From positions 129,206 to 193,205 of the forward strand of contig JAQUVS010000001.1 in the NCBI GenBank assembly GCA_028693275.1: a DNA stretch of 64,000 nt, written 5' to 3'. Every line of letters starts with the position of its first letter. Positions within the stretch are counted from its first letter, which is position 1. A model generated the notes under the pieces. The model had not been told where the DNA came from. It worked only from the letters and a program-made list of their open reading frames with translations, and did no database searches. The stretch is from Bacilli bacterium. Lineage in GTDB: Bacteria; Bacillota_I; Bacilli_A; RF39; UBA660. Positions 7,080-52,103 of this stretch are shown here, one piece after another. The position numbers were made by a program, and so were the translations under genes.

Positions 7080-7522
7080 TGAAGTTACATGAATTAGTAA
7101 AAAATGAAGGTGCTAAACAAGCTCGTAGAAGAGTTGGTCGTGGACCTGGAAGTGGTTTAGGAAAAACAAGTGGTAAAGGACATAAAGGACAAAACGCTCG
7201 TAGTGGTGGTGGAGTAAATCCAGTTTTTGAAGGTGGACAAATTCCATTGTACAGACGTTTACCTAAAAGAGGTTTTAGCAATGCAATGTTTAAAATCGAA
7301 TACGCAGTAGTCAATTTAAGTGATTTAAATATATTTGAAGAAGGAACAGTTGTTACTCCTGCTTTATTAAAAGAAACAGGATTAGTAAAAAAACAATTAT
7401 CAGGAATAAAAGTATTAGGGGAAGGAAGTCTTGAAAAGAAATTAACTATTCAAGCTAACAAGTTCTCTACTAGCGCCTTAGAAAAAATCGAAAAGTCAGG
7501 AAGTAAAGCTGAGGTGATCTAA
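7079..7522 (+). CDS. rplO: 50S ribosomal protein L15
   Basis: 147 aa Gly/Arg-rich N-terminus typical of L15. Its start overlaps the rpsE stop (TAATG), leaving no room for rpmD. Confidence 0.94.
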
Positions 7523-7523
7523 T

Positions 7524-8816
7524 ATGTTTCAAACTATGAAACAAATATTTGCTCCAACAAATAAGGATCTTAGAAAAAGAATCTTATTTACATTGGCCGC
7601 ATTATTGATCTTTGTAGTTGGAACATCAATTAGGGTTCCAGGTACTCCGGATATTACAGGAAGCCTAGGTTTCTTGGAATTGATGAATGCTATGGGAGGA
7701 GGAGCCTTAAAGCAATTTTCTATATTTGCTTTAGGGGTTATGCCTTACATTACAGCATCTATCATAATGCAGTTATTGCAAATGGATATTATTCCTTATT
7801 TTAGTGAATTAAATAAACAAGGACCTGTCGGTAGACAAAAAATAAATCAAATAACTAGATATGCAGGTATAATTTTTGCCTTTATAGAAGGTTATGCATT
7901 CTCTTATGCATTTTTAGGAAATGGTGCTAGTGTAACATCGTTTGATCACATTTATGTGGCAACAATATTAACAGCTGGTACAGCATTCTTATTATGGTTA
8001 GGAGATCAAGTTACAAAAAAAGGTATAGGAAATGGTGTTTCACTATTAATCATGGCTGGTATTATTTCTACATTACCTACAATGTTTGTACAAGCATTTA
8101 ATGGACTTGTATTTAATTCAGCAATAAACCAAGTACTTGGAATAGTATTATTTGTACTATTTGTAATTGTATATTTTACAATTATCATAGGTGTAATTTG
8201 GGTTCAAGAAGCGGATAGAAAAATTCCAATTCAATATGCAAATAAAACAACATCTGCATATGGAGCTCAACAATCATTTATGCCAATAAAAATAAATTCA
8301 GCAAATGTAGTTCCAGTTATTTTTGCATCAAGCTTATTAGCTATACCTGCAACAATAGCTCAATTCATTAAAAATGATGGATTCACTACTTTTGTTAATA
8401 CTTATTTAACATATACAACACCAGTAGGATTTTTAATATATGTAGGATTGATATTCTTATTTGGATATTTTTATACATTTATTCAAATTAAACCTGAAGA
8501 ATTATCAAAGAACTTACAACAAAATGGAGGTTATGTTCCAGGAATAAGACCAGGTAAAGATACAGAAAACTATGTTAGTAAAGTTTTATCTAGATTAACA
8601 ATAGTTGGATCATCTTTCTTAGTTATTATTGCGGTTCTTCCAATATTATTTAGTGCTTTAGTTAATATGATTGATAAAGTTGAATTATCATCAAATGTAA
8701 CTATAGGTGGTACTGGATTATTAATAGTTGTTGGGGTAGCTCTTGAAACTTATAAACAACTTGAAGGTAGTTTACTAACAAGAAGTTATAAGAAAGGTTA
8801 CAGTAGAAGAAGATGA
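7524..8816 (+). CDS. secY: preprotein translocase subunit SecY
   Basis: 430 aa with 10 TM segments, in conserved spc operon position. Confidence 0.95.
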   Translation: MFQTMKQIFAPTNKDLRKRILFTLAALLIFVVGTSIRVPGTPDITGSLGFLELMNAMGGGALKQFSIFALGVMPYITASIIMQLLQMDIIPYFSELNKQGPVGRQKINQITRYAGIIFAFIEGYAFSYAFLGNGASVTSFDHIYVATILTAGTAFLLWLGDQVTKKGIGNGVSLLIMAGIISTLPTMFVQAFNGLVFNSAINQVLGIVLFVLFVIVYFTIIIGVIWVQEADRKIPIQYANKTTSAYGAQQSFMPIKINSANVVPVIFASSLLAIPATIAQFIKNDGFTTFVNTYLTYTTPVGFLIYVGLIFLFGYFYTFIQIKPEELSKNLQQNGGYVPGIRPGKDTENYVSKVLSRLTIVGSSFLVIIAVLPILFSALVNMIDKVELSSNVTIGGTGLLIVVGVALETYKQLEGSLLTRSYKKGYSRRR

Positions 8817-9466
8817 ATCTAATCTTGATTGCACCTCCTGCTGCTGGTAAAGGAACTCAATCTAAAATATTAGAAAAAGTATATGGTCTTGCTCACATAT
8901 CTACAGGGGATTTGCTTAGAGAAGCATCCTCTTTAGATGATGATCTAAGTATAAAACTTAGAGAAATACTTGCAAGTGGGCAATTAGTAAATGATGAAAT
9001 AGTATTAGAATTATTAAAAAGAAGAATATTACAAGAAGATTGTAATAATGGATACATTTTGGATGGTTTTCCAAGAAATGTAGAACAAGCAATGAAATAT
9101 GAAGAAATTCTTGCTGAAGTAAATAGAAAAAATGATTTTATAATTGTTTTAGATGTTGAAAAAGAGATTTTATTGCAAAGAATTACAGGCAGAAGAATTT
9201 GTAAAAATTGCGGTTCAATCTACAATGTTAATATTGAATCTTCAAAGCCTAAATCAGATATGATTTGTGATAATTGCGGTGGAACATTATATCAAAGAGA
9301 AGATGACAATGAACAATCTTTTATAAAAAGATATGATGAATATTTAGTTAAAACTAAACCACTAGTAGATTATTATTCTAAAGAAGGTAATTTGTATCAT
9401 ATTGATGCAAATCAATCTAGGGATGATATCACTTCACAAATTAAGTTAATTTTAGAAACGAGATGA
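8813..9466 (+). CDS. adk: adenylate kinase
   Basis: 217 aa; P-loop PPAAGKGTQ and a zinc lid CKNCGS..CDNCGG. Confidence 0.93.
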   Translation: MNLILIAPPAAGKGTQSKILEKVYGLAHISTGDLLREASSLDDDLSIKLREILASGQLVNDEIVLELLKRRILQEDCNNGYILDGFPRNVEQAMKYEEILAEVNRKNDFIIVLDVEKEILLQRITGRRICKNCGSIYNVNIESSKPKSDMICDNCGGTLYQREDDNEQSFIKRYDEYLVKTKPLVDYYSKEGNLYHIDANQSRDDITSQIKLILETR

Positions 9467-9470
9467 TTTA

Positions 9471-10217
9471 ATGGTAACAATAAAAAGTGATAGCGAAATT
9501 CAATTATTGAAAATAGCTGGGAATATTGTATATCGTACACATCAATATCTTAAACCATTTTTAAAAGAAGGAATTACAACAAAAGAGTTAGACAAACTAG
9601 CTGAGGACTTCATATTGGAGAATGATGCAACTCCTTCTTTTAAAGGATATGGTGGATTTCCTGGATCTATTTGTGCTAGTATCAATAATGAAGTAGTACA
9701 CGGGATTCCTGGAGATAGAAAATTAAAAACCGGTGATATTGTTTCAATAGATATTGGGGCTTGTTACAAAGGTTATCATGGAGATTCAGCTTGGACTTAT
9801 GCTGTTGGTGAGGTTAGTGAAGAAAAGAAATATCTTATGAAACATACTGAGGCAGCATTATTTGAAGGGTTAAATGAAGTGAAGGCTGGTAATAGAATTG
9901 GGGATATAGGTTTTGCAATTGAAAGTTATGCTAAGAAGCATAATCTTGCAGTAGTTAAAGAACTTGTTGGTCATGGAGTTGGAAGCAATTTACATGAATC
10001 TCCAGATGTTCCAAATTATGGAAATAAAGGAAAAGGTTTAGTCCTAAAAGAAGGAATGGTAATAGCAGTTGAACCAATGTTAAATCTTGGTACAGCAAAT
10101 ATTTTTATTCTTGATGATGATTGGACAATTATAACAGCAGATGAAAAACCATCAGCTCATTATGAGCATACAGTTGCTGTTACAAAAGATGGATACCAAA
10201 TTTTGACGGGAGAGTGA
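9471..10217 (+). CDS. map: type I methionine aminopeptidase
   Basis: 248 aa M24A sequence in the conserved adk-map-infA order. Confidence 0.93.
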
Positions 10218-10221
10218 AAAG

Positions 10222-10437
10222 ATGGCAAAAGATGATACAATTGAGATAGACGGTAAAGTACTTGAAATAATCCCTGGTGGAAAATTTAAAGTACAACTTG
10301 AAAATGGACACATTGTAGAGGCTCACGTTTCTGGTAAAATACGAATGAATTACATTCGTATCTTACCGGGGGATACCGTAACAATAGAATTATCGCCTTA
10401 TGATTTAACACGTGGGCGTATAACCTATAGAAAATAA
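10222..10437 (+). CDS. infA: translation initiation factor IF-1
   Basis: 71 aa S1-like OB fold, MAKDD.. start. Confidence 0.95.
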
Positions 10438-10450
10438 TAGGAGGGATATT

Positions 10451-10564
10451 ATGAAACGTAAACCATCAGTAAAGAAAATTTGTTCTAAATGTAGAATAAT
10501 TAGAAGAAAAGGAAACGTAATGGTTATTTGTGAAAATCCAAAACACAAACAAAAACAAGGTTAA
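10451..10564 (+). CDS. rpmJ: 50S ribosomal protein L36
   Basis: 37 aa [37 protein letters not shown]. Not in the ORF track because it is under 60 aa; GGAGGG RBS upstream. Confidence 0.93.
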
Positions 10565-10582
10565 TTGATAGGAGGGTATTAA

Positions 10583-10948
10583 ATGGCACGTATTAAAGGT
10601 GTAGACTTACCAAATGATAAGCAAGTTGAAATCGCTTTAACTTCAATCTATGGTATTGGTAGACAATTATCAAAACAAATTTTAAAAGCAGCAGATGTTG
10701 AAGCAAACAAAAAAGCTAGGGATTTAGATAATGATGAACAAGCTAGAATTCGTGATGAAATTTCTAAACATTTAGTTGAAGGAGATCTTCGTCGTGAAAT
10801 CAGTATGAATATTAAGACTAAAATGGAAATAAATTCATATGAAGGTTCTCGTCATAAAAAAGGATTACCAGTTAGAGGACAAAGAACAAGCAGAAATGCT
10901 CGTACTCGTAAAGGTAAAGGAAAAACTGTTGCTAATAAAAAGAAATAG
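10583..10948 (+). CDS. rpsM: 30S ribosomal protein S13
   Basis: 121 aa, [13 protein letters not shown].. S13. Confidence 0.95.
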
Positions 10949-10985
10949 TTTAAGTTAAAATAAATTAAATTAAGGAGGTTAGACT

Positions 10986-11369
10986 ATGGCTTATAAAACT
11001 AGAAAAAGAAAAGTTAAGAAAAATGTTCCAGAAGGAGTAGCACATATTCATTCAACATTTAATAATACAATTACAACAATTACTGATAAAGAAGGAAATG
11101 CAATAAGCTGGGCAAGTTCTGGTGCAATCGGATTTAAAGGTAGTAAAAAATCAACACCATTTGCAGCTGGTATGGCTGCTGAAGCAGCTGGTAAAGCAGC
11201 TTATGATATTGGTATGAGAAAAGTAGATGTATTCGTTAAGGGTATGGGACCTGGACGTGAAACAGCAATTCGTTCATTACAAACTGCTGGTCTTGAAGTA
11301 GCTTCAATTACAGATGTTACTCCAATTCCACACAACGGATGTCGTCCACCAAAACGCCCTCGTGGGTAA
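10986..11369 (+). CDS. rpsK: 30S ribosomal protein S11
   Basis: 127 aa S11 sequence. Confidence 0.95.
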
Positions 11370-11391
11370 TTAATAAAAGGAGGAAAGTTTC

Positions 11392-12342
11392 ATGTTACAA
11401 TTTGAAAAACCAATTTATAAAATAACTGATTATATAGAAAATAATTTCTATGGAAAATTTGAATTAGAACCATTAGAAAGAGGATTTGGTACAACTATTG
11501 GTAATGCTCTTAGAAGAGTAATGTTATCATCTTTACCTGGTTCTGCTATAAGTAGTATTAAGATTGATGGAGTTTCTCATGAATTCCAAACAATTGAAGG
11601 TGTAGTAGAAGATGTTTCTTTAATTATCTTAAATTTAAAAGGTGTAGTTGTTAAAAATCACACTAATGAAAAAAAGGTAATTAGATTAAATGTATCTAAA
11701 GAAGGTCCAGTTACTGCTGGAGATATTGAAAGAGATGCAGATATTGAAATATTAAATCCAGACAAGGTTATAGCTAATATTGCCAAGGGTGGAAAATTAG
11801 TAATGGAAATGACAGTTTCAAATGGTAGAGGATATGTTAGAAGTGAAGAAAATAAAAAATTGTTAGGTGACAAAAAAGTTGGAACTATAGCAATAGATTC
11901 ACTTTACTCTCCAATTGAAAGAGTTTCTTGTGATGTAGAACCTGCACGTGTAGGACAAGATGAAAGTTATGATAGATTAATTCTAAATGTATGGACAAAT
12001 GGAGCTATTAAGCCTGAAGAAGCAGTTGCTTTAGCATCAAGAATATTAATAGAACATTTTAACGTAGTTACAGACTTAAATAGTATTGCTGATATGACTG
12101 GATTAATGATTGAAAAAACAGAAGATCCAAAAGTAAAAGCACTAGAAACAACTATTGAAGATTTAGATTTCTCAGTTAGAGCTTATAATTGTTTAAAGAG
12201 AGCTGGAGTACATACATTACAAGATTTAGTTAATAAATCTGAAGATGATATGATGAAGATTCGTAATTTAGGTAAAAAGTCTTTAAAAGAAGTTTTAGAT
12301 AAAGTTAGGGACTTAGGATTATTATTAAGAGATGAAGATTAA
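11392..12342 (+). CDS. rpoA: DNA-directed RNA polymerase subunit alpha
   Basis: 316 aa with alpha NTD and CTD. Confidence 0.95.
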   Translation: MLQFEKPIYKITDYIENNFYGKFELEPLERGFGTTIGNALRRVMLSSLPGSAISSIKIDGVSHEFQTIEGVVEDVSLIILNLKGVVVKNHTNEKKVIRLNVSKEGPVTAGDIERDADIEILNPDKVIANIAKGGKLVMEMTVSNGRGYVRSEENKKLLGDKKVGTIAIDSLYSPIERVSCDVEPARVGQDESYDRLILNVWTNGAIKPEEAVALASRILIEHFNVVTDLNSIADMTGLMIEKTEDPKVKALETTIEDLDFSVRAYNCLKRAGVHTLQDLVNKSEDDMMKIRNLGKKSLKEVLDKVRDLGLLLRDED

Positions 12343-12360
12343 AAGTAAGGAGGACTAAAT

Positions 12361-12705
12361 ATGGCATATAGAAAATTAGGTCGTGATTGTAAACATAGAA
12401 GAAGCATGCTTGCTAATTTAACTAAAGATGTTATCATGCACGAAAGAATTGAAACAACAGAAACAAGAGCTAAGGAAGTTCGTAAATTTGTTGATAAAAT
12501 GATTACTTATGGTAAAAATGGTAGCTTAGTGTCAAGAAGACAAGCACTAGCTTTCCTTCAAAATGATAATGAAGCTGTACAAAAAGTTTTCAATGATCTT
12601 GCTAAACGTTATGAAAATAGAAACGGTGGATATACAAGAATAATGAAGACTGCTGAAAGAAGAGGAGATAATTCCCTAATGGCAATTATCGAATTAGTAA
12701 AATAA
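12361..12705 (+). CDS. rplQ: 50S ribosomal protein L17
   Basis: 114 aa L17 sequence. Confidence 0.94.
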
Positions 12706-12731
12706 AGATACAATGTATCTTTTTTTTTTTG
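12706..12731 (+). terminator. rho-independent terminator after rplQ
   Basis: Hairpin AGATAcaatgTATCT followed by a T10-13 run. Confidence 0.7.
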
Positions 12732-12769
12732 ATTTACTTTGATATAATAAAGAAGAAATGGGTGGTTAT

Positions 12770-13522
12770 ATGAAGGCATTAGTTACAGGTGCTTCTTCTG
12801 GAATAGGGTTGGAGATATCAAAATATTTAGATTCATTGGGATATGAAATGATTCTAGTTTCTAGAAGTAAGAATGATTTAGAAATGTTACAATTAAAATT
12901 AAAGAATAAGTCTAAGATAGTAGTCATGGATTTAAGTGACGAAGCTAATATTAAATCTTTATATGTTTTATGTAAAAATGAAGATATAGATGTTTTAGTA
13001 AATAATGCTGGTTTTGGAACTTGCGGATATTTTTCTGATACAGATCTAAATAAAGACATGGAAATGATTAATTTAAATGTAAAAGCAGTTCATTTGCTTA
13101 CTAAATTATTTTTAAAAGATATGATAAAAAGAGATAAAGGTTATATTTTGAATGTGGCTTCAACTGCTGCTTTTCAATCAGGACCTTTAATGGCAGTTTA
13201 TTATAGTACTAAAGCCTATGTATATAGATTAACAGAGTCTATATCTTATGAACTAAAGAAACAAAAATCTAATGTTAAAGTGTCTGCTTTATGTCCTGGA
13301 CCAGTCGACACAAACTTTAATAAAGTAGCAGGTGTTAATTTTAGTATTAAACCTTTAACAAGCAAGTATGTAGCAAAATACGCTATAGATAAAATGTTAA
13401 AAAATAAGATGCTTATTATACCAGGATTTAAGATAAAATGTGCCAAGTTCTTTGGAAGATTTTTATCAGATAAGATGTTAATGAGAATAACCTATAGAGT
13501 GCAAAAAAAGAAATTGAAATAA
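12770..13522 (+). CDS. short-chain dehydrogenase/reductase (SDR) family oxidoreductase
   Basis: TGASSGIG Rossmann motif plus NNAG and YxxxK catalytic elements. Start placed at ATG 12770 (MKALVTG); the track start is 12758. Confidence 0.8.
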   Translation: MKALVTGASSGIGLEISKYLDSLGYEMILVSRSKNDLEMLQLKLKNKSKIVVMDLSDEANIKSLYVLCKNEDIDVLVNNAGFGTCGYFSDTDLNKDMEMINLNVKAVHLLTKLFLKDMIKRDKGYILNVASTAAFQSGPLMAVYYSTKAYVYRLTESISYELKKQKSNVKVSALCPGPVDTNFNKVAGVNFSIKPLTSKYVAKYAIDKMLKNKMLIIPGFKIKCAKFFGRFLSDKMLMRITYRVQKKKLK

Positions 13523-41462: not shown

Positions 41463-41556
41463 AAAGTATTTATTAAATCCTGTTTTCCCGACCATTTGAA
41501 ATTTAGGCCTTATTTTTCTTGAATTTTAAATTAAATGGGTAAAAAAGAATTGTATT

Positions 41557-41583
41557 ATACCGTTTGCGGTATGATATTTTTTC
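41557..41583 (+). terminator. rho-independent terminator
   Basis: ATACCGtttgCGGTAT hairpin followed by a T-run. Confidence 0.55.
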
Positions 41584-41665
41584 TAATAGATATTTCTGAA
41601 TCTGTTAATTATTAAAATGATTTTTTTATATGTATAAATGAAAATAACTGCTATAATTATAATAG

Positions 41666-43795
41666 GTGATTAGTGTGAACGATTTAAATGAATACTTTGA
41701 TGATATGTTTAAAGAAGTTGATCCAAATATACTTTTAGATGAACAGCAAAGAGAAGCTATTACTATTGATTCTGATAATCTTTTAGTTGTGGCGGGAGCA
41801 GGTAGTGGAAAGTCTACTACTATGGTAGCTAAAGTAAAATATTTAATTGATAAGTGTGGATATAAAGAATCGGAAATTGTAGTTGTCTCTTTTACAAAAA
41901 AGGTAAAAGAAGAATTATCAGAAATCATACATGATAAATTTGGACTAAAAAATGTAGCTGTAACAACTTTTCATAGCTTAGGTTTAGAAATAATTAATAA
42001 GAGCGGTGAAGATGTCGCTGATGTAGTTGATGAAAAAGGTCAATACAAAATATTTTCCAATTATATTAAAAATGTTTTATTTAAGGATAAAGAAAAATTT
42101 AGTTTATTGAATGATGCTTTTTCTAAATATTTAAATTTTGGTGATCAATGGATGTCTTTTGATGATTTTGATACATATCATACTAAAAGTTTTGTTGATA
42201 AATTTAATAAATCAGAAGAAAGTATTAAAGTGTATATTGAAAATCAGATTCTAAGAAGAAGACAATATAAAAAGACAATTAATGGAGAATATACAGCATC
42301 CAAAGAAGAAGTAGATATAGCAAATCTTCTTTATATAAATGGAATAGATTATAATTATGAGCTGAAGTTAAATAATGGATATAAAAAGGGAAGGGGATAT
42401 CATCCTGATTTTTATATTCATCAATTAGAAAAAGAAAATTATATAGAACATTTTGGGGTTGACCAAGATGGAAGTAATTCTATGTATAGTGAAAGCGAAT
42501 TAAAAAATTATTTGTCTATTTTAAAAATTAAGGATAAGTATATTAATAGTTATGAAAACAGAAATAAATTTATTGTTACCTATTCTAGGTATGATAATGG
42601 AAAAACATATTTAACAGATTTAATTGATCAACTTAAGCATAATGGTTATGTTCCACACAAAAGATCAGATGAAGAAATATTTGCTAAATTAATGGATACA
42701 GGTACAGATTATTATTTTTCAGTTTTCGTTGATAAAATTTTGGTACCTGTAATATCAATGTATAAGCAAAGTGGATATTCATATAGAGATTATGATTCAT
42801 TAATAGAGTCAAATGATGGTAATTTGAAAAATCAATTAATAGTTTTAAAAATGTTTCACGAATATTATGAGAAAGAACTTAGTAATAAACATTTAATAGA
42901 TTTTGAAGACATGATTTTAAAGGCATATACTTTAATGCCGATTATTAAAGAAAAGGATTTGGGTGTAGATTATAAGTACTTGATAATAGATGAATATCAA
43001 GATATTTCGAATCAAAGATTAAACTTAGTTAAGAGGCTAGTTGATTTATTTGATGCTAAAGTAATGGCTGTTGGTGATGATTGGCAAACAATATTTGGAT
43101 ATGCAGGTTCTAGAATAGATTTATTTAAAAATTTTTCAAAAGAACTTCCGAATTCAGATCAAGTAGCTATAGAACATACTTATAGAAATAGCCAAGAATT
43201 AATAGATATAGCTGGAGAGTTTGTACTTAAGAATCCTTATCAAATTAAGAAACATTTGATATCTGATAAACATACTATCAATCCTGTTGAAATTATTTTT
43301 TATGATGATGAAGAAAAAGAAAAGGTAAATGGTAATAGAGCTAAATATGTAGACGCAATTCTTGGTAATTTAAGTAAAATAAATCCAAATTGTTCTGTAT
43401 TACTATTAGGTAGGTATCAAAAAGATATATACAAAATAGATGATAAAAAGTACTTTAATATAATGGGTTCAAAAATAAAATCTGTTAATTATGAAAATAT
43501 TGATTTGGAATTTTTAACTATTCATAAGGCAAAGGGATTGGGAAGAGACTATGCGATTTTATTAGATCTTAATGATGATAAATATGGTTTTCCAAGTAAG
43601 ATAGATGATTTACCTATAATAAAGTTAATAAGACCTAAAATAGAAGAAAGTATAGATTTTCCTGAAGAGAGAAGGCTTTTCTATGTTGCTTTAACTAGAA
43701 CAAAGAATAAAATTTATATCTTAGTTCCTAAATGTAAAGAATCAGAGTTTTCTATAGAAATAAAAAAATTCCATAATGTGCGTATATTAAAATAG
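41666..43795 (+). CDS. UvrD/PcrA/Rep-family SF1 DNA helicase
   Basis: Helicase motif I AGAGSGKST, DEYQD (II), GDDWQTIFGYAG (III), TIHKAKGL, and C-terminal LFYVALTR. The start may be GTG 41675. Confidence 0.85.
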   Translation: MISVNDLNEYFDDMFKEVDPNILLDEQQREAITIDSDNLLVVAGAGSGKSTTMVAKVKYLIDKCGYKESEIVVVSFTKKVKEELSEIIHDKFGLKNVAVTTFHSLGLEIINKSGEDVADVVDEKGQYKIFSNYIKNVLFKDKEKFSLLNDAFSKYLNFGDQWMSFDDFDTYHTKSFVDKFNKSEESIKVYIENQILRRRQYKKTINGEYTASKEEVDIANLLYINGIDYNYELKLNNGYKKGRGYHPDFYIHQLEKENYIEHFGVDQDGSNSMYSESELKNYLSILKIKDKYINSYENRNKFIVTYSRYDNGKTYLTDLIDQLKHNGYVPHKRSDEEIFAKLMDTGTDYYFSVFVDKILVPVISMYKQSGYSYRDYDSLIESNDGNLKNQLIVLKMFHEYYEKELSNKHLIDFEDMILKAYTLMPIIKEKDLGVDYKYLIIDEYQDISNQRLNLVKRLVDLFDAKVMAVGDDWQTIFGYAGSRIDLFKNFSKELPNSDQVAIEHTYRNSQELIDIAGEFVLKNPYQIKKHLISDKHTINPVEIIFYDDEEKEKVNGNRAKYVDAILGNLSKINPNCSVLLLGRYQKDIYKIDDKKYFNIMGSKIKSVNYENIDLEFLTIHKAKGLGRDYAILLDLNDDKYGFPSKIDDLPIIKLIRPKIEESIDFPEERRLFYVALTRTKNKIYILVPKCKESEFSIEIKKFHNVRILK

Positions 43796-43826
43796 TGGTA
43801 TAATTAATATAATTTGGAGGTTATTT

Positions 43827-44216
43827 ATGAAAAATGTTGAAGTTGTAGCAGCAGTAATACAGGACGGTAATAAAATTTTAGCTACTAGAAGAGGCTATGG
43901 TGATTTTATCGGTATGTGGGAATTTCCTGGTGGAAAAATTGAAGAAAATGAGACTCGCGAAGTAGCCTTAATAAGGGAAATTAAGGAAGAATTAGATGCG
44001 GATATTGAAGTAGGAAAATTTTTAACAACCGTAGAATATGATTATCCAAAATTTCATTTAATGATGCATTGTTATTTATGTCATTTAAAGGAAAGTAAGA
44101 TAACTCTCGTAGAACACAGTGATGCTAAGTGGCTAGAAAGTGATGAGTTATCATCGATTGATTGGTTGCCAGCGGATATAGAAGTAGTAGATAAAATCAA
44201 AAAATTAGTAAGGTAG
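43827..44216 (+). CDS. NUDIX hydrolase (MutT-like)
   Basis: Nudix box GGKIEENETREVALIREIKEELDA. Confidence 0.85.
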   Translation: MKNVEVVAAVIQDGNKILATRRGYGDFIGMWEFPGGKIEENETREVALIREIKEELDADIEVGKFLTTVEYDYPKFHLMMHCYLCHLKESKITLVEHSDAKWLESDELSSIDWLPADIEVVDKIKKLVR

Positions 44217-44223
44217 GTATATT

Positions 44224-47007
44224 ATGGAAATGAATACAGCAGTAACAAAATCGCTATTTGATAAAGAAGTTGATTCTTTAGTTTATAATCCTAATATAGT
44301 TATAAATGAAAATAGTAAAAATATTAAAGAAAAAATTCAAGAGCTATTACAATCATCAAGTAGAGTTGATATTGCTGTTAGTTATGTTGTATGGTCAGGG
44401 CTCTCTTTAATATATGATGATTTAAAGAAGTTTGATTCTAATAGTAGGTTATTATTAACTACAGAAGGTATGGTTACGGATCCTAGATCACTACAAAAAT
44501 TAAGTGAGTTAAATATGCAGGTAAAAGTTTACGTACCTTTTAATGGTGCAAAAGGATTCCATTTAAAGACATATCTATTTGAAAATGAATCCAAAAGAAC
44601 TTTATTAATTGGAAGTTCTAATATATCATCTAGGGCATTCGGTTTAGTTCATGAAATGGCTGTAGAAATTGATGCTGACAGTAAAGGTTATATAGTAGAA
44701 AAATACAATGAAGTATTTGAACAATTATGGGAAGATGAGTATTCTGAATTCTTGTCAGAACAATATATTGAAGGATATAAAATTCTTTATAAAGAATATA
44801 AAAAAATGAAAAAAGATATTGAAAACATAGTTGAAGATAGCGGTTTAATTAAACCTAATTATATGCAGGAAAAAGCATTGAAGTCACTGGAAGATTGTAG
44901 AGAGACAACTGATAGAGGATTAGTTATTGCAGCTACTGGAACAGGTAAAACGTATTTATCAGCATTTGATGTAAAAAATAGTAAATATAGAAAGGTTCTC
45001 TTCTTGGTTCACAATAGGCTCATTCTCACATCAGCAATTAAAACATTTAAAAAAGTATTTAATGATAAAAGTATGCTAGAATTAACATCTAATAATGTTG
45101 AAGAAGTTTATACTTCAGATTTTATATTTACTACTGACAAAACAGCATATAATTGTTTATTTAATAAAATTCCAAAAGATTATTTTGAATATATAATATA
45201 TGATGAAGCTCATAAAATTGGTTTAGAAACAAAATATAGTGAGTTGCTAGAATATTTTACTCCTAAGTTTACTTTAGGAATAACTGCAACTCCAGAAAGA
45301 ACAGATAATCCAGATTATTTATTTAAAACATTTAAGTACAGTATTCCTTATGAAATTAGATTACTTGAAGCAATGAAATATGAACTGGTTTGTCCGTTTA
45401 CTTATTATGGATTAACGCTTAAAGAAAATTTATTAAAAGCAAACGAAGAATATGATTATGCTGAATTAGCAAAATATTTGAAAAAAGTAATTGCTGAAAA
45501 AGGTCATTACGGAGAAAAATTAAAGTGTCTAATTTTTTGCTCATCAATTAATGAAGCAAAATCAACATCTGAAGAACTTAGTAAAATAGGATTTAAATCA
45601 GTTGCTTCGGTAAGCTCAGAATCAGGAAATGATAGAGATTCAACTGAGCAGTATATTAATGATTTAAAATCTGATATTGATGGTACTTTAGAAATTATTT
45701 GTACAGTAAATAAATTTAATGAAGGAATTGATATTCCTGATATAAATACAATTATTATGCTTAGAAATACAGTATCATCAATAATTTACTTGCAGCAATT
45801 AGGGCGCGGTCTAAGAAAAACAAATGATCAGCATAAGTATGTGACAATATTTGATATAATTGGCAATTCAAAAAATAATTATTCAATTGCTCAAGTATTA
45901 ACAGGTAATACTACAGTTGATAAAAGAAATCTATATAGATATGCAAACGAAGAGTTTCAAACTGTTTCTCCTTTTATAAATGTACAGATAGAAAAAGAAG
46001 CAATGGAAAATATAATTAAATCAATTTCCAATAATTTTACTGTTAAAACAAAAATTAAAGAAAAGTTTAGAGATGAATTATTTAGATTTAAAGAAATACC
46101 TACTTTACTTGAACTTTATATAAATCCTAATTTTAAAGAGTTAGATTTGTTACAATTGTTATTTAGAAATTTCTATGACCCATTTGAAGAATATTATTAT
46201 ACAAAATATTTTATAGAAAAGTCTAACAAGTTTATTAATGATTTTTTTACTCTTATTTCTCAATTTGTATTTAGGGGATATGATAATAAAACATTAAAAG
46301 ATTATGTGAAAATTTTGAAGGGTGAAAAAGTAAAAAATGAAATTTTAGAAAAAGTACTACTTTCAACTGAAATTACAAATGGAATATCAACTTTTATCTT
46401 TAGTGATTATTATAAAGCGACAAAAAATAATCCAAAAGTTTTTGTTATCAGTGATAATTATTTAACTCTTAATGATGAAATATATAAAGAATTAGAAAAA
46501 AATAATGCAATGAAGTTATTTGAAGAACATATCGAACTTTTCGAATATTTAAGTAATCAAATTGAATATCAGATGAAACCATTTGATTTAGTTGACAAAG
46601 GTGAATTTTTATTTAATTCTGGAAGTAAAGATTGCTATATGAATGTTGTTGGTGAAAGAATTGATAAAGATAGAAAAACAGTGTACTGTACTATTAACAT
46701 AACAAGAAAAGATTCATTCTATGATAATTACATTATTGATGATCATAAATTTGTTTATTATACGCAAGGTTCATCGACTGAAGTAAAAGCAAAAGAGAAA
46801 ATTGATATGTTTATAAAAGATAATTACAAATTTAATGTGTGTGCAAAATTTCCACATTTGGGTTATACGAATACCGTATATTTTAATTTAGGCGAAGTGG
46901 ATATATCAAAAATATCTGATGTTATCGAAACTGAAAAAGGCAAGTTTAATCATGAAATTGAATTTGAATTAAAAGATAAATTTCCAATCGAATTATTACA
47001 ATATTGA
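44224..47007 (+). CDS. PLD-family nuclease domain, SF2 (DEAH-like) helicase and DUF3427 C-terminal domain fusion
   Basis: N-terminal HKD motif GFHLKTYLF..LLIGSSNIS. SF2 motifs GLVIAATGTGKT and IYDEAHK, plus helicase C-terminal QQLGRGLR. The ~300-aa C-terminal domain is DUF3427-like. Confidence 0.75.
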   Translation: MEMNTAVTKSLFDKEVDSLVYNPNIVINENSKNIKEKIQELLQSSSRVDIAVSYVVWSGLSLIYDDLKKFDSNSRLLLTTEGMVTDPRSLQKLSELNMQVKVYVPFNGAKGFHLKTYLFENESKRTLLIGSSNISSRAFGLVHEMAVEIDADSKGYIVEKYNEVFEQLWEDEYSEFLSEQYIEGYKILYKEYKKMKKDIENIVEDSGLIKPNYMQEKALKSLEDCRETTDRGLVIAATGTGKTYLSAFDVKNSKYRKVLFLVHNRLILTSAIKTFKKVFNDKSMLELTSNNVEEVYTSDFIFTTDKTAYNCLFNKIPKDYFEYIIYDEAHKIGLETKYSELLEYFTPKFTLGITATPERTDNPDYLFKTFKYSIPYEIRLLEAMKYELVCPFTYYGLTLKENLLKANEEYDYAELAKYLKKVIAEKGHYGEKLKCLIFCSSINEAKSTSEELSKIGFKSVASVSSESGNDRDSTEQYINDLKSDIDGTLEIICTVNKFNEGIDIPDINTIIMLRNTVSSIIYLQQLGRGLRKTNDQHKYVTIFDIIGNSKNNYSIAQVLTGNTTVDKRNLYRYANEEFQTVSPFINVQIEKEAMENIIKSISNNFTVKTKIKEKFRDELFRFKEIPTLLELYINPNFKELDLLQLLFRNFYDPFEEYYYTKYFIEKSNKFINDFFTLISQFVFRGYDNKTLKDYVKILKGEKVKNEILEKVLLSTEITNGISTFIFSDYYKATKNNPKVFVISDNYLTLNDEIYKELEKNNAMKLFEEHIELFEYLSNQIEYQMKPFDLVDKGEFLFNSGSKDCYMNVVGERIDKDRKTVYCTINITRKDSFYDNYIIDDHKFVYYTQGSSTEVKAKEKIDMFIKDNYKFNVCAKFPHLGYTNTVYFNLGEVDISKISDVIETEKGKFNHEIEFELKDKFPIELLQY

Positions 47008-47032
47008 ATTTAAACATATTATAAATCTATTA

Positions 47033-47058
47033 ATCACTAGAAATAGTGATTTTTATTT
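47033..47058 (+). terminator. terminator fused to the downstream promoter
   Basis: ATCACTAgaaaTAGTGAT hairpin plus T-run, followed by TATAAT at 47066-47071 and RBS AGAGGTG at 47078-47084. Confidence 0.6.
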
Positions 47059-47090
47059 TATAATGATATAATTGATATAGAGGTGTTTAT

Positions 47091-47561
47091 ATGTCTAAGA
47101 TAAGTAATATTTTAAATATGATTCAGTTACTAAGTAGTGGAAGAAAATATAGTATTAAAGAGTTATCGGATAAGTTAGAAGTAACTCCTAGACAAATTAG
47201 AACTTATAAAGAAGAATTAGAACTTGCAGGTATATATATTGATTCAATTAAAGGACCATATGGAGGATATATTTTAAATCAAAATATAAATGTTCCTAAA
47301 AGGTTTATTACTCCTAGAGATATTAAAGGGTTAGATCAATATAATTATAAAGAAATTAATAGGGCTATAAAAGAAAAAAAGAAATGTTATATTGAGTATT
47401 ATGCTAGGGATAAATCTATTTCAAATAGGATAATAGAACCTTATGATTTAATTTTATTTGGAGATCTGTGGGGTGTTGCTGCTTATTGTGAATTGAAACA
47501 AGAAATAAGAAATTTTTATTTAAATAGAATTAAAAGTATTAAAATTTTAGATAATAAATAA
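47091..47561 (+). CDS. short HTH-WYL domain transcriptional regulator (BrxR/CapW-like, lacking WCX)
   Basis: N-terminal wHTH (LNMIQLLSSGRKYSIKELSDKLEVTPRQIRTYKEEL) followed by a WYL-type motif ..RIIEPYDLILFGDLWGVAAYCELKQEIRNFYLNRIKSI. Confidence 0.65.
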   Translation: MSKISNILNMIQLLSSGRKYSIKELSDKLEVTPRQIRTYKEELELAGIYIDSIKGPYGGYILNQNINVPKRFITPRDIKGLDQYNYKEINRAIKEKKKCYIEYYARDKSISNRIIEPYDLILFGDLWGVAAYCELKQEIRNFYLNRIKSIKILDNK

Positions 47562-47615
47562 AGTGACATCAATAGTTCCTATATAGAAGATATAATTATT
47601 TATAGGAGTGGTGTT

Positions 47616-48227
47616 ATGAATAAAGTTTTTTATGTTACAGGTAATTATGGAAAATATGTTTCTGTAAGGGATTCTTTTGATGGGGAAGATATTGAAATAG
47701 ATTTTTTAAATCTTGATTTTAATGAACCTGATGTTAATGATATAGAATATGTATCTAAATCTAAAGTAATGGAAGCTTATGAAAAATTAGGTGAGCCTTG
47801 CTTTGTTATTGATAGTGGTTTTTATATTAATAGTTATCCCAATAATCCAGGTTATCCTGGAGCTTTTGTTAAAAGAAGTGGTATAAGTTCAGATGTTAAT
47901 AATTTACTTTCTGTTATGAGGAATATTAACGATAGAAGTTGTTATTTTTTAGATTGTTTAACTTTTTATGATGGAGAAAATTTATATACTTTTTTTGGTA
48001 AGTGTAGTGGTAATCTTTCTTATGATGTTAGAGGTAGTTATTTAGAAAAAGCTTGGTCAAATTTATGGAGAGTATTTATTCCTAATAACTGTGATAAGTC
48101 TTTATCTGAAATGAATGATTTAGAAAGAAAAAATAGAGACGATGGTAGAACTTCTGCTATTGGTAATTTTATAGAGTGGTATAAAAATGATTATCATAAT
48201 ATAAATGTTCTTAAAAAGACTTTATAA
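47616..48227 (+). CDS. Ham1/RdgB-family non-canonical purine NTP pyrophosphatase-like protein
   Basis: VTGNYGK (like ATGNxGK), CFVIDSGFYINSYPNNPGYPGAF (like DDSGLxVxALxGxPGxYSAR) and C-terminal DDGRTSAIG (like SHRGxA). Confidence 0.6.
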   Translation: MNKVFYVTGNYGKYVSVRDSFDGEDIEIDFLNLDFNEPDVNDIEYVSKSKVMEAYEKLGEPCFVIDSGFYINSYPNNPGYPGAFVKRSGISSDVNNLLSVMRNINDRSCYFLDCLTFYDGENLYTFFGKCSGNLSYDVRGSYLEKAWSNLWRVFIPNNCDKSLSEMNDLERKNRDDGRTSAIGNFIEWYKNDYHNINVLKKTL

Positions 48228-48273
48228 AAATCATATATAGTGGTATAATACACATTAATTTAGGGGGATATAT

Positions 48274-48852
48274 ATGAAAATATTATTAGGAAGTAATAAT
48301 GAAAGTAAGAAAAAATCATTAGAAAGAGCTTTATACGAACTTGAAATAAAAGATTATGAAATAATTAATTTTGATGTAGACAGTGAAACTAATAGTAAGC
48401 CTATTGGATTTGAAATTCTTAGGGGAGCAGAAAATAGAAATAAGAATTTAAAGGCTATAGCAATATTCAAAGAAATTGAATATGATTACTTATGTTCTAT
48501 CGAAGGGGGATTTGAAGTAGATCAAAATGGATTACCAAGTGTTGTTACTTATTGTATTATTGAAGATAAGGACGGTAATATGTTTACAGGTAAATCTTTT
48601 AATATAAGGATTACTAAAGCAATGTTTGAATTTACTAAAAAGGGTGGTTCTTTAAATAGTGTTATTAAAGATATTGTTAAGGATCATACTAAAACTAAAG
48701 GTGGAATAATCGGTTATCTATCTGATGGCTTATATAATAGGGATGATATGGATAGTGGTTCAGTTGTTTCTGCTTTTATACCAATTGTTTATAAAGAACA
48801 AAGAAGTTTATTAGATGAAAAAGTAAAGTCTTTATTAAATAAGAAAAACTAA
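48274..48852 (+). CDS. YjjX-family inosine/xanthosine triphosphatase-like protein
   Basis: LLGSNNESK, GAENRNKN and GGIIGYLSDGLYNRDDMDSGSVVSAF align to YjjX blocks (TTNPAK, GARNR, GAIGxFTxGxLTR). Confidence 0.55.
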   Translation: MKILLGSNNESKKKSLERALYELEIKDYEIINFDVDSETNSKPIGFEILRGAENRNKNLKAIAIFKEIEYDYLCSIEGGFEVDQNGLPSVVTYCIIEDKDGNMFTGKSFNIRITKAMFEFTKKGGSLNSVIKDIVKDHTKTKGGIIGYLSDGLYNRDDMDSGSVVSAFIPIVYKEQRSLLDEKVKSLLNKKN

Positions 48853-48866: not shown

Positions 48867-49583
48867 ATGATTTGGAATCCTTGGAGAGGTTGTCATAAAT
48901 ATAGTGATGGTTGTAAGTATTGCTATATTCATAAAGGAGATAAAAAAAGAGGAATAGATACTTCTTTAATTGTTTTGACTAAGGATTTTGATAAGCCAAT
49001 TGCTAAACTAAAAGATGGTACTTATAAAATCAAAAGTGGTTTAGTTTATACTTGTTTTTCATCTGATTTTTTAATAGAAGAAATGGATCAATATAGATTA
49101 GAATGCTATGATATGATGAGGCAAAGAAGCGATCTTAATTTTTTATTTTTAACTAAAAGAATAGAAAGATTTATGGAAGTTTTACCAAGTGATTGGGATA
49201 ATGGTTATGATAATGTAATTGTATGCTGTACTATTGAAAATCAAAAAACAGCTAACTATCGTTTAAATATTTTTAAAGATTTACCAATTAAGCATAAATG
49301 TATTACTATTCAACCAATGCTTGAAAAAATTAATATTATTGACTACTTAAATGATATAGAATTAGTTGTAGTTGGTGGTGAATCGGATATAAATGCAAGA
49401 TTTTTAGATTATGATTGGGTTTTAGATATTAGAGAACAATGTATAAAGACTAATACTAATTTTGAGTTTAGACAATGTGGAACTCATTTTATTAAGGATG
49501 ATAAATTATTTAATATACCAACTAAAAATTTATGTAAACAAGCGATACTAGCTAATATTAATTACTACAGGGAGAAAAAATAA
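48867..49583 (+). CDS. DUF5131 (phage Gp37/Gp68 family) three-Cys-motif protein
   Basis: N-terminus MIWNPWRGCHKYSDGCKYCY matches the family start tWNPxtGCxxxSxGCxxCY (Cx6Cx2C). Confidence 0.65.
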   Translation: MIWNPWRGCHKYSDGCKYCYIHKGDKKRGIDTSLIVLTKDFDKPIAKLKDGTYKIKSGLVYTCFSSDFLIEEMDQYRLECYDMMRQRSDLNFLFLTKRIERFMEVLPSDWDNGYDNVIVCCTIENQKTANYRLNIFKDLPIKHKCITIQPMLEKINIIDYLNDIELVVVGGESDINARFLDYDWVLDIREQCIKTNTNFEFRQCGTHFIKDDKLFNIPTKNLCKQAILANINYYREKK

Positions 49584-51121
49584 TGAAAGAATATTTAGAA
49601 TTATGTAAAGATAAATTATTATATGAGATATGTGAATTACTGGGAATTGAAAAATTGACAGAAGATAATGATAATGATTATATTTGGTCTATCGTAACTT
49701 CTACTTTATTACATAATGAAAAATTATGTGGAGAAGAAAAAATAGAACAGTATTTAGATTCTTTACCTATAGCTAAATCTATTGAAAGTCATATATTAAG
49801 ATATGCCTTAGATACTAGTTGTGTTTTAGATACTGATAGGTTTAAAAATTATTTTTTAGATAACGATAATAAATTTAGTGATTATAATTCTTTTGATAAA
49901 TATACTTTTTTAACAGAACAATATATATTGGAAGATAAAGATAATTATTTGTCTGATTTGGATATTAGTTATGGAAGTAATTCGGCTATTATTACTGATG
50001 AACTTTTAGATTATAAGAAATTGATAAAAAGAGTTAGAAATAGTTTAGCTCATTCTAATTATGAGATTGTTAATGATGATCAAATTAGACTTTATCATTA
50101 TGATGATAATAATGTTTTAGATTTTAATGTTTTATTATGTAAACCTTTAGTTATAACTATTATTGATGAGATAAATGAAAAATCTTATAATTTATATAGT
50201 AATCTACTTGATGAATTAGGAAATTATAATACTAATAATAAAGAATCTAGAGAAATAAATGATAAAGATATTCAAAGTTATTTAGATGAATATAAGTTTT
50301 TAACAGAAAAAGATAAGTTGAAAATAATTAGACATACTTATAATTGGATAAAAGAAAATCAAATTACTAATAAGTATCTAGTATATGATAGATTAGATAA
50401 AGCAGCTTTTGTAAAGATTAAAAATACTTATAATAGTGCTTTAGTATTAGATTCATTAATAGTTACTAATTATAATAGTGATCCGTTATACTCTGATTAT
50501 TTGTATCACCGATATGGAGTTTATGAATATTCTTCTTTTGATATTAGGACATTTGCTATTTATAAGGAAGAAAAATTAAGATTACTATTGATATCTTTAC
50601 TTAATGTTATTTTCTTATATGGCTCTAATACTAGTAGTAAAGTATTTGATTTATCGTTGGTAGAAACTGATTCTAAGTTTGTTTTGAAAAAAGAGAAAGC
50701 ATTTATTAAAGAAAAAGAAGAAAAACAAAGAGAAATAGATAATATTAAAACATCTATAAATACAAAAAAAGAGATATTAAAAGATAAATATATTGATAAT
50801 GAATATTTTAATAAAATCTTACCAGAAGTTATTTCTTCTTTAGAAATAAAAATAATTGAAAAGGAATCTAGTTTTCCTAATTTTAAAGAAATAAATGTAC
50901 TTGCTCATATTAGAAATAGTTTAGCTCATGGGAATACTATATATAATCATAATAAGCAAGAACTTATATTTAAAGATTATGATCCTTTTACTCATAAACT
51001 TACTTATCTTGGTAAAATAAGTATAGAAAATTTATTTATTTTACTTAAAGATAATGGTATCATTAGTGGTAGAAAAGCAGTTAAGAAACTAGCAGGAGGT
51101 TTTTTATGCATAAATATGTAG
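49583..51121 (+). CDS. tandem-HEPN domain protein (two RNSLAH Rx4H motifs), predicted RNase
   Basis: RNSLAHSNYEIV around residue 150 and IRNSLAHGNTIYNH around residue 440; the same RNxxAH motif type as the Abi_2 protein at 18719. Confidence 0.6.
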   Translation: MKEYLELCKDKLLYEICELLGIEKLTEDNDNDYIWSIVTSTLLHNEKLCGEEKIEQYLDSLPIAKSIESHILRYALDTSCVLDTDRFKNYFLDNDNKFSDYNSFDKYTFLTEQYILEDKDNYLSDLDISYGSNSAIITDELLDYKKLIKRVRNSLAHSNYEIVNDDQIRLYHYDDNNVLDFNVLLCKPLVITIIDEINEKSYNLYSNLLDELGNYNTNNKESREINDKDIQSYLDEYKFLTEKDKLKIIRHTYNWIKENQITNKYLVYDRLDKAAFVKIKNTYNSALVLDSLIVTNYNSDPLYSDYLYHRYGVYEYSSFDIRTFAIYKEEKLRLLLISLLNVIFLYGSNTSSKVFDLSLVETDSKFVLKKEKAFIKEKEEKQREIDNIKTSINTKKEILKDKYIDNEYFNKILPEVISSLEIKIIEKESSFPNFKEINVLAHIRNSLAHGNTIYNHNKQELIFKDYDPFTHKLTYLGKISIENLFILLKDNGIISGRKAVKKLAGGFLCINM

Positions 51122-51561
51122 TTTTAGAATTAATTCCTACTCATACTGATCCTAAACTTGGAGAAGTAATTCAATTATCAGCTTTAAAAATAGATAATTT
51201 AAAATTAGTAGATAGATTTGATTATAGATTAAATGAAGAAAAAATACTTATAAATGAGTTAATAAAATTAATTAGTTATGATAAGGATTCTTTTACATAT
51301 CTTGATAGTACTAATGATATTTTAGAAGAATTTCAAAACTTTGTTGATGATTATAAAATTGTATATATTGATAATACTTATACATATAATTATATAAGTT
51401 ATTTAAAAGGAGATAAGGTTTCTATTAATTCTCTTTTAAATATTAGTAAAAAAGATGATGTAGTTGAAGAAATTATGAAAAGATATAATATAGAACCTAG
51501 TAATTACATAGTGGATATATTATATGAAGGGCTTATTTATAAAAGTAATGAGGTGGCTTAA
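51106..51561 (+). CDS. small protein with weak DnaQ-like 3'-5' exonuclease resemblance (possibly inactive)
   Basis: VVLELIPTHTDPKLGEVIQLSALKID resembles Exo motif I (vvfDxETTG..eIIeigavk) but with the first Asp replaced by Leu. Overlaps both neighbours. Confidence 0.3.
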   Translation: MHKYVVLELIPTHTDPKLGEVIQLSALKIDNLKLVDRFDYRLNEEKILINELIKLISYDKDSFTYLDSTNDILEEFQNFVDDYKIVYIDNTYTYNYISYLKGDKVSINSLLNISKKDDVVEEIMKRYNIEPSNYIVDILYEGLIYKSNEVA

Positions 51562-52103
51562 TGAAATTATTATTTATATCTGATATTCATGGAATAGTTG
51601 ATAATTTAAATTATATTGAAAATCTTTTAACAGAAGAAAAATTTGATAAATTAATTGTTCTAGGTGATTTATATTATATGGGATTTAATTCTATTGATAA
51701 TCATTCTTTTAATAATACTTTAGTTAAAGATTTTTTATATAAAAATAGAAATAAATTAATTTGTATGAGGGGTAATTGTGATTCAGATGTTGATATAGTT
51801 ACTTCTGACTTTCCAATTGCAAGTGGATTATCTTTAATAAATGTAGATGGAATAGATATTTATATAACACATGGTCATGAGTATAATATTGAAAGCAAGA
51901 GACATAAGTTTAATAATTGTTTCTTGGTATATGGTCATAAGCATTTTCCTTTTATAGAAAAAGTAGAAGACGTTACATATATTAATACTGGTTCTATATC
52001 ATTACCTAGAAATAATAGTAATCCTACGTATTTAGTTTATGAGGATAGAAAGTTTACTATCTATGATATATATGGTAATAAAGTAGATGAAATATATTGT
52101 TAG
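51561..52103 (+). CDS. metallophosphoesterase (YfcE/MJ0936-type calcineurin-like phosphodiesterase)
   Basis: Motifs SDIHG, GDL, GNCD, THGH, GHKH. Confidence 0.8.
   Translation: MKLLFISDIHGIVDNLNYIENLLTEEKFDKLIVLGDLYYMGFNSIDNHSFNNTLVKDFLYKNRNKLICMRGNCDSDVDIVTSDFPIASGLSLINVDGIDIYITHGHEYNIESKRHKFNNCFLVYGHKHFPFIEKVEDVTYINTGSISLPRNNSNPTYLVYEDRKFTIYDIYGNKVDEIYC

Follow-up and report, generated by a model that had tools for sequence, protein, structure and literature searches.

A Ham1-like and a YjjX-like gene adjacent in a Bacilli genome probably belong to two independent units

In a 64,000-nucleotide (nt) stretch of DNA from a Bacilli bacterium of the RF39 lineage (contig JAQUVS010000001.1, positions 129,206 to 193,205; hereafter, the window), a gene for a Ham1-like protein of 203 amino acids (aa; + strand, 47616-48227) is followed directly by a gene for a YjjX-like protein of 192 aa (+ strand, 48274-48852). 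We found that this tandem is a lineage-specific juxtaposition at the border of a variable segment and a core block, and that it has no special meaning. The Ham1-like gene has its conserved partner in the gene upstream of it, which encodes a 156-aa regulator with a helix-turn-helix (HTH) and a WYL domain. On balance, we think it probable that the tandem consists of two independent evolutionary and transcriptional units, the Ham1-like protein being a pyrophosphohydrolase of the WYL operon with an altered substrate and the YjjX-like protein being an ordinary member of its family.

The gene pair and the border between its genes

Both genes are intact open reading frames (ORFs), separated by 46 nt in the ORF list and lying in a neighborhood in which every gene is on the + strand; the G+C content of the window DNA is low (21-33%). 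The Ham1-like protein scored 64.9 bits against Pfam Ham1p_like (PF01725; cut-off 22.5), with nearly the whole model covered, and the YjjX-like protein scored 92.1 bits against NTPase_I-T/DUF84 (PF01931; cut-off 25; E = 4.4e-26) over profile positions 1-161 of 162. These full-length matches bear out the statement of an earlier note on this DNA that members of the two families stand back to back and co-oriented. Both proteins fell far under every NCBIfam equivalog cut-off, the Ham1-like protein reaching 67.9 bits against TIGR00042 (RdgB/HAM1; cut-off 145.35) and 92.3 bits against PRK14821 (cut-off 203), and the YjjX-like protein 57.7 bits against TIGR00258 (inosine/xanthosine triphosphatase; cut-off 117.1). 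No further copy of rdgB or yjjX was found within the 64-kb window. The AlphaFold model of the Ham1-like protein (pLDDT 85) superposed with TM scores of 0.75-0.84 on PH1917, Mj0226, KomB, ITPA, and RdgB, and, more distantly, it matched the same fold in Maf proteins and in VC0702, a structure of the YjjX family (probability 0.98 for VC0702). Since the Ham1 and YjjX families both have an ITPase-like fold, the earlier description of the two enzymes as unrelated was mistaken.

Relatives of each protein of the pair are numerous at 50-66% identity. For the Ham1 clade, we compared 88 other loci, i.e., 80 genomic loci from distinct species (139 species representatives were matched), nearly all of them uncultured gut Bacilli, and 8 metagenomic loci; proteins were clustered after ORF calling, and the non-redundant set held 82 loci. 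For the YjjX side, 19 other YjjX-like loci were compared. Not one of the 88 loci carried a YjjX-like gene within ±10 kb of the Ham1-clade gene, and none of the 19 had an intact Ham1 gene near the YjjX-like gene; L014 alone contained Ham1 sequence, in the form of a pseudogene. By these counts, the adjacency of the two genes does not exceed chance. DUF5131 or P512 (a 512-aa protein), whose genes follow YjjX in the window, likewise adjoined YjjX at only one of the 19 loci, the close relative L014.

The border between the two genes was located with L014 and a second close relative, L112 (YjjX 80-81%, DUF5131 77%, and P512 63-70% identical). DNA homology with the window starts at 48220 in L014 and at 48221 in L112, a few bases 5' of the Ham1 stop codon, and in L112 it runs from 48221 over 9.3 kb at 84% identity. 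Left of this breakpoint, L112 carries an unrelated gene, and Ham1 is absent. In L014, homology stops after P225, a gene of 225 aa without an assigned family (window 41473), and resumes at 48220; the Ham1 remnant there comprises the C-terminal 55% only, is frameshifted over two frames with internal stops, and has an inserted gene of 302 aa directly after it. Since Ham1 is a pseudogene in L014 and absent from L112, the Ham1-like gene is dispensable. Given the breakpoints at 41473 and 48220-48221, positions 41474-48220 form a variable segment and 48221 onward a core block, and the two genes touch because the WYL-Ham1 operon occupies the right edge of the variable segment.

At the left end of the core block, the gap between Ham1 and YjjX holds a promoter-like site (48221-48249, + strand), TTTATA and TATAAT with a 17-nt spacing and a TG extension (TGgTATAAT, an extended -10). 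This extended -10 promoter 5' of YjjX is kept in the relatives without Ham1. Since the breakpoint stretch contains a kept promoter, YjjX has its own promoter, and the proposed co-transcription of Ham1 with YjjX, DUF5131, and P512 is not borne out.

The WYL regulator, the Ham1-like protein, and c2

The WYL gene lies at 47091-47561 (+ strand), and its product combines an HTH_11 domain (residues 8-61; Pfam E = 6.8e-08) with a WYL domain (residues 86-152; Pfam E = 5.8e-16; PADLOC WYL, 4e-31). An extended -10 promoter element, TGATATAAT (47064-47072, + strand), is located 18 nt 5' of the WYL start codon. Further upstream, 3' of the restriction-enzyme gene described below, a hairpin followed by a T-run (ATCACTA-gaaa-TAGTGAT; 47033-47059, + strand) can be read from the sequence; this terminator-like element probably closes off the restriction-enzyme unit and keeps the WYL operon insulated. 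A similar hairpin with a T-run occurs 5' of the WYL promoter in other species (e.g., L004, L008, L017, and L022). The pattern TGnTAnAAT was present upstream of the WYL start in 41 promoters, 32 of which have it 15-34 nt before the start codon, and a hairpin of the terminator-like kind is often found ahead of it. A TACATT motif recurs upstream of WYL in a subset of loci and is not found in the window.

A WYL homologue precedes Ham1 at 79 of the 88 loci, at position -1 in 32 and at -2 in 47, and the two are linked at 74 of the 82 non-redundant loci. In 44 of these 82, a gene for a protein of about 343 aa (c2), absent from the window, lies between WYL and Ham1; the other architectures were WYL-Ham1 (29), c2-Ham1 truncated by a contig end (4), WYL-x-Ham1 (1), a contig end (1), and others (3). 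Because the WYL-c2-Ham1 and WYL-Ham1 architectures are intermixed across Ham1 subclades, c2 is optional and WYL-Ham1 is the core. Loci at the edge of the clade are still WYL-linked: L114 carries WYL, a split c2, and Ham1, and in L115, WYL is followed by BtpA, by a gene in which a second Ham1-like domain is fused to c2, and by Ham1. One distant member of the subfamily is not WYL-linked. WYL and Ham1 co-vary (Spearman 0.41), and in the same genome pairs, pairwise identity was 67-73% for Ham1, 74% for WYL, and 54% for GltX. The higher identity of Ham1 and WYL relative to GltX points either to a strong constraint acting jointly on the two or to their horizontal spread inside the lineage. We found no literature linking WYL regulators to bacterial Ham1 proteins, and the WYL-(c2)-Ham1 operon is a previously undescribed one, conserved in numerous species of gut Bacilli that are uncultured and low in G+C. 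In L038 (181-4682), two Ham1-clade copies occur within 4.7 kb, one after WYL and the other four genes downstream.

Like BrxR, CapW, PafBC, and DriD, the 156-aa regulator has an N-terminal HTH and a WYL domain, and its gene heads the operon that it presumably controls. Those regulators are roughly 290-320 aa long, whereas the 156-aa protein ends right after its WYL domain and has no C-terminal extension. WYL factors commonly control defense systems, as BrxR and CapW do; in contrast to the BrxR/CapW type, the cargo here is a Ham1-fold enzyme, with or without c2, and no recognized defense or repair system lies downstream.

An alignment of 35 members of the Ham1 clade (mean column identity, 67%) showed that T8-G-N10-x-G-K13, E37, K50, D66, and K86-R87 are invariant, and T8, N10, K13, E37, K50, D66, and K86 are largely kept across the 110 subfamily representatives inspected. 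In ITPA, these correspond to the T-x-N-x-x-K phosphate loop, Glu44 (E37, metal), Lys56 (K50), the catalytic Asp72 (D66), and Lys89 (K86); all of these are common to the Ham1-like protein and Mj0226, PH1917, RdgB, and ITPA, whose fold it shares. However, the Ham1-like protein differs from these enzymes at several other positions. The acid before the catalytic Asp (position 65) is A or I in the clade, so that the window protein reads IDSGF in place of DDSGL/EDSGL, as had been noticed before; the Glu22 equivalent is Ser (S16); the FG(Y/W)DPIF motif is replaced by S-N-L-W-x-V-F; and SHR (ITPA 176-178) is replaced by D-G-(R/H), with D176-G177-R178 at these positions and R or H kept at the Arg178 equivalent throughout the clade. 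Residue roles were taken from PMC5075207 and PMC9016069: SHR forms the hypoxanthine pocket, where the essential Arg178 makes contact with the 6-keto group and is oriented by Glu22, and Phe149, in the FG(Y/W)DP motif that likewise belongs to this pocket, keeps out GTP (PMC5075207). Since the phosphate loop, the metal Glu, and the catalytic Asp are kept, the Ham1-like protein is probably still a nucleoside triphosphate (NTP) pyrophosphohydrolase, and since the residues that specify hypoxanthine/xanthine are lost, its substrate is probably another non-canonical (d)NTP. Catalysis thus appears to be retained and base specificity changed. The enzyme differs from its classical relatives also in its operon with WYL and, often, a SIS-like protein, and in being dispensable in close relatives.

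An exhaustive profile search returned 1,010 representatives at E ≤ 1e-10, 43 of them at E ≤ 1e-30, so that the clade forms the tip of a large subfamily, which is sister to archaeal Mj0226 (profile match, 2e-49). The wider subfamily has the pattern x-D-SGF and W-S-x-L-W-x-I-F-I-P and no SHR, the SHR and FG(Y/W)DP positions being variable or absent. We found no solved structure or description of this divergent Ham1 subfamily. A Ham1 fold outside classical housekeeping is known from KomB, the dITP sensor of Kongming, which matched the Ham1-like protein both in sequence (8zsg; E = 3e-07) and in fold. According to the Kongming preprint, the defensive HAM1 has its catalytic Asp changed to His and is always paired with the SIR2 protein KomC, and the adenosine deaminase KomA is usual. 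By contrast, D66 is invariant in the Ham1 clade, and neither SIR2 nor adenosine deaminase was found near the window genes or among the top 25 Pfam families of the +1/+2 neighbors at the 80 genomic loci.

No Pfam family was assigned to c2, for which Pfam SIS scored only E = 0.21. Its matches to Protein Data Bank (PDB) profiles were all weak (E = 0.016-0.23), three of the four being SIS proteins, and TIGR02128 (PGI/PMI) was the best NCBIfam match for three divergent c2 members, also weak (E = 8e-4 to 7e-3). In both databases, the best of these weak matches were consistently phosphosugar isomerases of the SIS fold. P0254 is a single-chain Ham1::c2 fusion, whose c2 part matched at E = 5e-111; of the fusion partners of long subfamily members, only c2 and, in one fusion, QueA were informative. 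A second divergent Ham1-like type (c159; IDDGLF, no SHR) occurs near the module in L077 (583-1945), L078 (2793-4131), and L115 (3404-4999). It lies directly 5' of a family-4-like uracil-DNA glycosylase (UDG) gene in L077 and L078 and is fused to c2 in L115. We considered c159 as the canonical RdgB of L077 and L078 and rejected this, since c159 is another divergent Ham1-like protein.

The core block, the variable segment, and neighboring genes

The YjjX-like protein can be aligned with VC0702, at low similarity (E = 1e-4), over the S-x-N-x-x-K, GAxNR, ExG, and KGG motifs. Its lineage family has a mean column identity of 62%, with N9, K12, R50, G51, R55, N56, E77, G78, and G79 invariant, and distant orthologues are solitary, standing beside PBP, DAGK, or sortase genes in core contexts. 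As with Escherichia coli YjjX and Vibrio cholerae VC0702, it matches the family end to end, its signature motifs are kept, and its orthologues are solitary, as in most members; unlike them, it has low similarity to solved members and lies below the NCBIfam equivalog cut-offs, and in this lineage only it heads an array of DUF5131, P512, and YfcE genes. It is probably the lineage's ordinary inosine/xanthosine triphosphatase-type gene and not specialized. The suggestion that both enzymes are specialized therefore stands in part: it fits the Ham1-like protein, with its divergent subfamily, remodeled pocket, tie to WYL, and dispensability, and does not fit the YjjX-like protein, which keeps the DUF84 motifs, has solitary orthologues, and heads the core block.

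The array that follows YjjX is tightly packed, with overlapping or abutting stop and start codons (48867-52103, + strand). It comprises genes for DUF5131, of a radical-SAM subgroup with C-x6-C-x2-C (from 48867); P512, with two RNSLAH motifs (from 49583); a DEDDh-like protein of 151 aa whose first motif is degenerate (from 51106); and a YfcE phosphodiesterase (from 51561). The array and YjjX are kept together in L014 and L112 only and are thus limited to three closely related loci. In PADLOC, DUF5131 matches the candidates PDC-M30B/M41B. The P512 family is rare (11 members in 5.8 billion proteins), and its two RNSLAH motifs are invariant. The HEPN label given to P512 in the earlier note has only these motifs in its favor, as P512 gave neither a Pfam match nor a PDB fold match; PF18736 was seen only as a precomputed or weak match in P512 relatives. 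DUF5131 and P512 as a recurrent pair were rejected, since the two do not occur together outside the three close relatives and distant P512 relatives lack DUF5131.

The variable segment (41474-48220) contains a helicase gene, a NUDIX and a type IV restriction-enzyme gene, and the WYL-Ham1 operon. To its left lie a radical-SAM gene (from 39933, + strand) and P225 (from 40785, + strand). Within it, a UvrD/helicase IV-like protein of 709 aa that resembles GajB (41666-43795, + strand) has no GajA-like partner; the only RNA-element match, RF03531 (a C. difficile sRNA that itself lies in a helicase gene), was sub-threshold and fell inside this helicase gene (43639-43732). A MutT/NudG-like NUDIX gene (from 43827, + strand; PADLOC PDC-S07, 8e-52) ends 7 nt 5' of a gene for a 927-aa type IV methyl-directed restriction enzyme with PLD and ResIII helicase domains (from 44224, + strand; 6e-88), and the two appear to form one unit (43792-47007). 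This unit has its own extended -10 promoter, ATAGTGGTATAAT, and an identical 13-mer lies 5' of YjjX at 48237. L014 shares P225, after which Ltp, Fic, and other genes take the place of the helicase, NUDIX, restriction-enzyme, and WYL genes; its slot (3939-7905) holds a 158-aa gene, an Ltp-type lipoprotein (PF07553), Fic, the Ham1 pseudogene, and a 302-aa N_methyl-motif protein. Since the L014 slot is filled with other accessory genes, the slot collects accessory genes in both genomes. No convincing flanking repeats were found around the variable segment. Elsewhere in the window, 383-13522 holds many short co-oriented ORFs (G+C content, 30-34%) and looks like a ribosomal-protein operon region.

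Across species, neighbor sharing around the WYL-Ham1 module was flat, at about 0.35-0.4 from -10 to +10 genes; therefore, the hypervariable flanks simply reflect low synteny in these genomes. The +1/+2 neighbors at the 80 genomic loci were heterogeneous and mostly housekeeping. As sharing is flat and these neighbors are mostly housekeeping, WYL-Ham1 as the leader of a variable defense cargo was rejected. Enzymes of nucleotides or DNA bases recur only faintly (NUDIX, 4/127; HD, 3/127; UDG-like, 5 loci; HMUDK_hel, 3 loci). A 314-aa protein (c57) with a 5-hmdU DNA kinase helical domain (PF18723, 1.9e-105) is encoded a few genes from WYL-c2-Ham1 in L019, L075, and L077 and hints at DNA base-modification chemistry nearby. 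Mobile or restriction genes lie directly 5' of WYL in three independent loci, with an integrase and Rep in L001 (3436-6300), a recombinase, Mob, and restriction-modification genes in L004 (44-7235), and the helicase, NUDIX, and type IV restriction-enzyme genes in the window (41666-47007). The Ham1 protein P0041 occurs both with and without an upstream element, and the synteny control showed no hotspot. A tRNA-linked island was also considered and rejected, as 17 tRNAs within 1.5 kb in 15 of the 82 loci, against about 13.5 expected, represent no enrichment. The Ham1 clade was absent from IMG/VR viral contigs, phage records, and plasmids; with no relatives in IMG/VR or phage records, and plasmid matches at 28% identity at most, a phage or plasmid origin was rejected. 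PADLOC returned no significant model match for Ham1 or c2.

Competing explanations and significance

Our reading of the tandem as two units would work as follows. The first unit would be an operon that the upstream hairpin insulates and that is transcribed from its own extended -10 promoter, encoding the short HTH-WYL factor and the Ham1-fold enzyme. By analogy with known WYL regulators, a nucleotide or nucleic-acid ligand would probably act through the WYL factor to switch Ham1 expression, and the Ham1-like protein would most likely be a WYL-controlled pyrophosphatase for a non-canonical nucleotide other than the hypoxanthine/xanthine type. The second unit would start at 48221 with its own promoter, an ordinary DUF84/YjjX gene heading the core block. 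Several points weigh against this interpretation. No terminator was found between Ham1 and YjjX, and read-through co-transcription is therefore possible. No WYL operator conserved across species was found, only the extended -10 and the ribosome-binding site being conserved, and the ORFs of the related loci were called by a simple custom script. Both the activity and the substrate of the Ham1-like protein are deduced from its residues alone, and the missing acid in front of the catalytic Asp and the missing Glu22 equivalent could also mean that catalysis is reduced. Finally, the Ham1-like gene might be the only Ham1 homologue of the genome, with a housekeeping role, as the search for copies covered the 64-kb window.

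The idea that the Ham1-like and YjjX-like proteins act with DUF5131 and the HEPN-like protein as one defense or nucleotide-depletion module, which the earlier note had raised, draws on the co-orientation and short gaps of the genes, on the type IV restriction enzyme, the PDC-S07 NUDIX, and the GajB-like helicase just upstream, on the PADLOC matches of DUF5131, and on the joint occurrence of YjjX, DUF5131, and P512 in three close relatives. We consider it very unlikely. Ham1-YjjX adjacency is missing from the 88 other Ham1 loci and from all other YjjX loci except L014, a synteny breakpoint and a promoter separate the two genes, Ham1 is decayed or absent where YjjX-DUF5131-P512 is intact, and distant P512 and YjjX relatives lack these partners. 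As DUF5131 and P512 are unlinked to YjjX and Ham1 outside the three close relatives, the neighbors of the module are mostly housekeeping genes, and there are no phage or plasmid carriers, the comparative data largely refute the single-module view. A narrower proposal is that WYL-(c2)-Ham1 by itself is an anti-phage system, in which WYL senses infection and induces Ham1 to destroy phage-modified dNTPs, deplete the nucleotide pool, or degrade a signal. WYL control of defense systems has been discussed (PMC9503650), Kongming is a case of a Ham1 fold at work in immunity, close relatives do without an intact Ham1-like gene, mobile or restriction genes lie directly 5' of WYL in the window, L001, and L004, and the conservation above GltX could reflect horizontal spread. 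However, Ham1 and c2 have no significant PADLOC match, the +1/+2 neighbors across 80 species are mostly housekeeping, the neighbors at the module vary no more than those at a distance of 10 genes, and viral contigs, phage records, and plasmids lack the clade. A defense role of WYL-Ham1 is thus not supported, and we regard the anti-phage proposal as unlikely.

The Ham1-like protein could instead be a divergent housekeeping ITPase of reduced-genome Bacilli, equivalent to RdgB, with WYL merely a local regulator. The presence of the clade in at least 139 species representatives, the strong purifying selection (67% mean column identity), the R or H kept at the Arg178-equivalent position, the housekeeping neighborhoods, and some synteny that fits vertical descent are all consistent with this. 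Yet the SHR and FG(Y/W)DP motifs of hypoxanthine recognition (PMC5075207) are replaced, close relatives lack the gene or carry it as a pseudogene, L038 has two copies and L077, L078, and L115 a second Ham1-like paralogue, and the scores lie far under the NCBIfam equivalog cut-offs; we judge this role improbable. It is more doubtful still that the protein is a non-catalytic nucleotide sensor like KomB, acting with WYL as a co-regulator. The KomB precedent, the co-variation of WYL and Ham1, and the loss of two pocket or metal-site residues (E16 to S, and D/E65 to A/I) would fit such a sensor; the invariant catalytic Asp (D66, where KomB-type proteins have His), the retention of E37, K13, N10, K50, and K86, and the lack of SIR2 or another effector consistently adjacent make it extremely unlikely.

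Within the two-unit reading, we tentatively consider a further possibility, itself rather unlikely, for the operon as a whole. WYL-(SIS-like c2)-Ham1 may be a ligand-inducible pathway dedicated to a single non-canonical nucleotide, e.g., a phage-modified dNTP or a signaling nucleotide with a modified base, which it would recognize and break down irreversibly, with Ham1 cleaving the triphosphate and c2 processing the phosphosugar or monophosphate that results. In that case, gut Bacilli would have a new system of nucleotide surveillance or phage defense.

As this tandem shows, the mere fact that genes adjoin in a single window says little about whether they are linked. What is new here is an unannotated, conserved operon in poorly studied gut bacteria that encodes an HTH-WYL protein and a Ham1-fold enzyme with a rewritten specificity pocket, often together with a SIS-like partner. 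Databases name the members of this subfamily "non-canonical purine NTP pyrophosphatase," a name that probably misstates the substrate. The identity of that substrate would extend knowledge of nucleotide-pool surveillance and supply a candidate small-molecule ligand for the WYL regulator.

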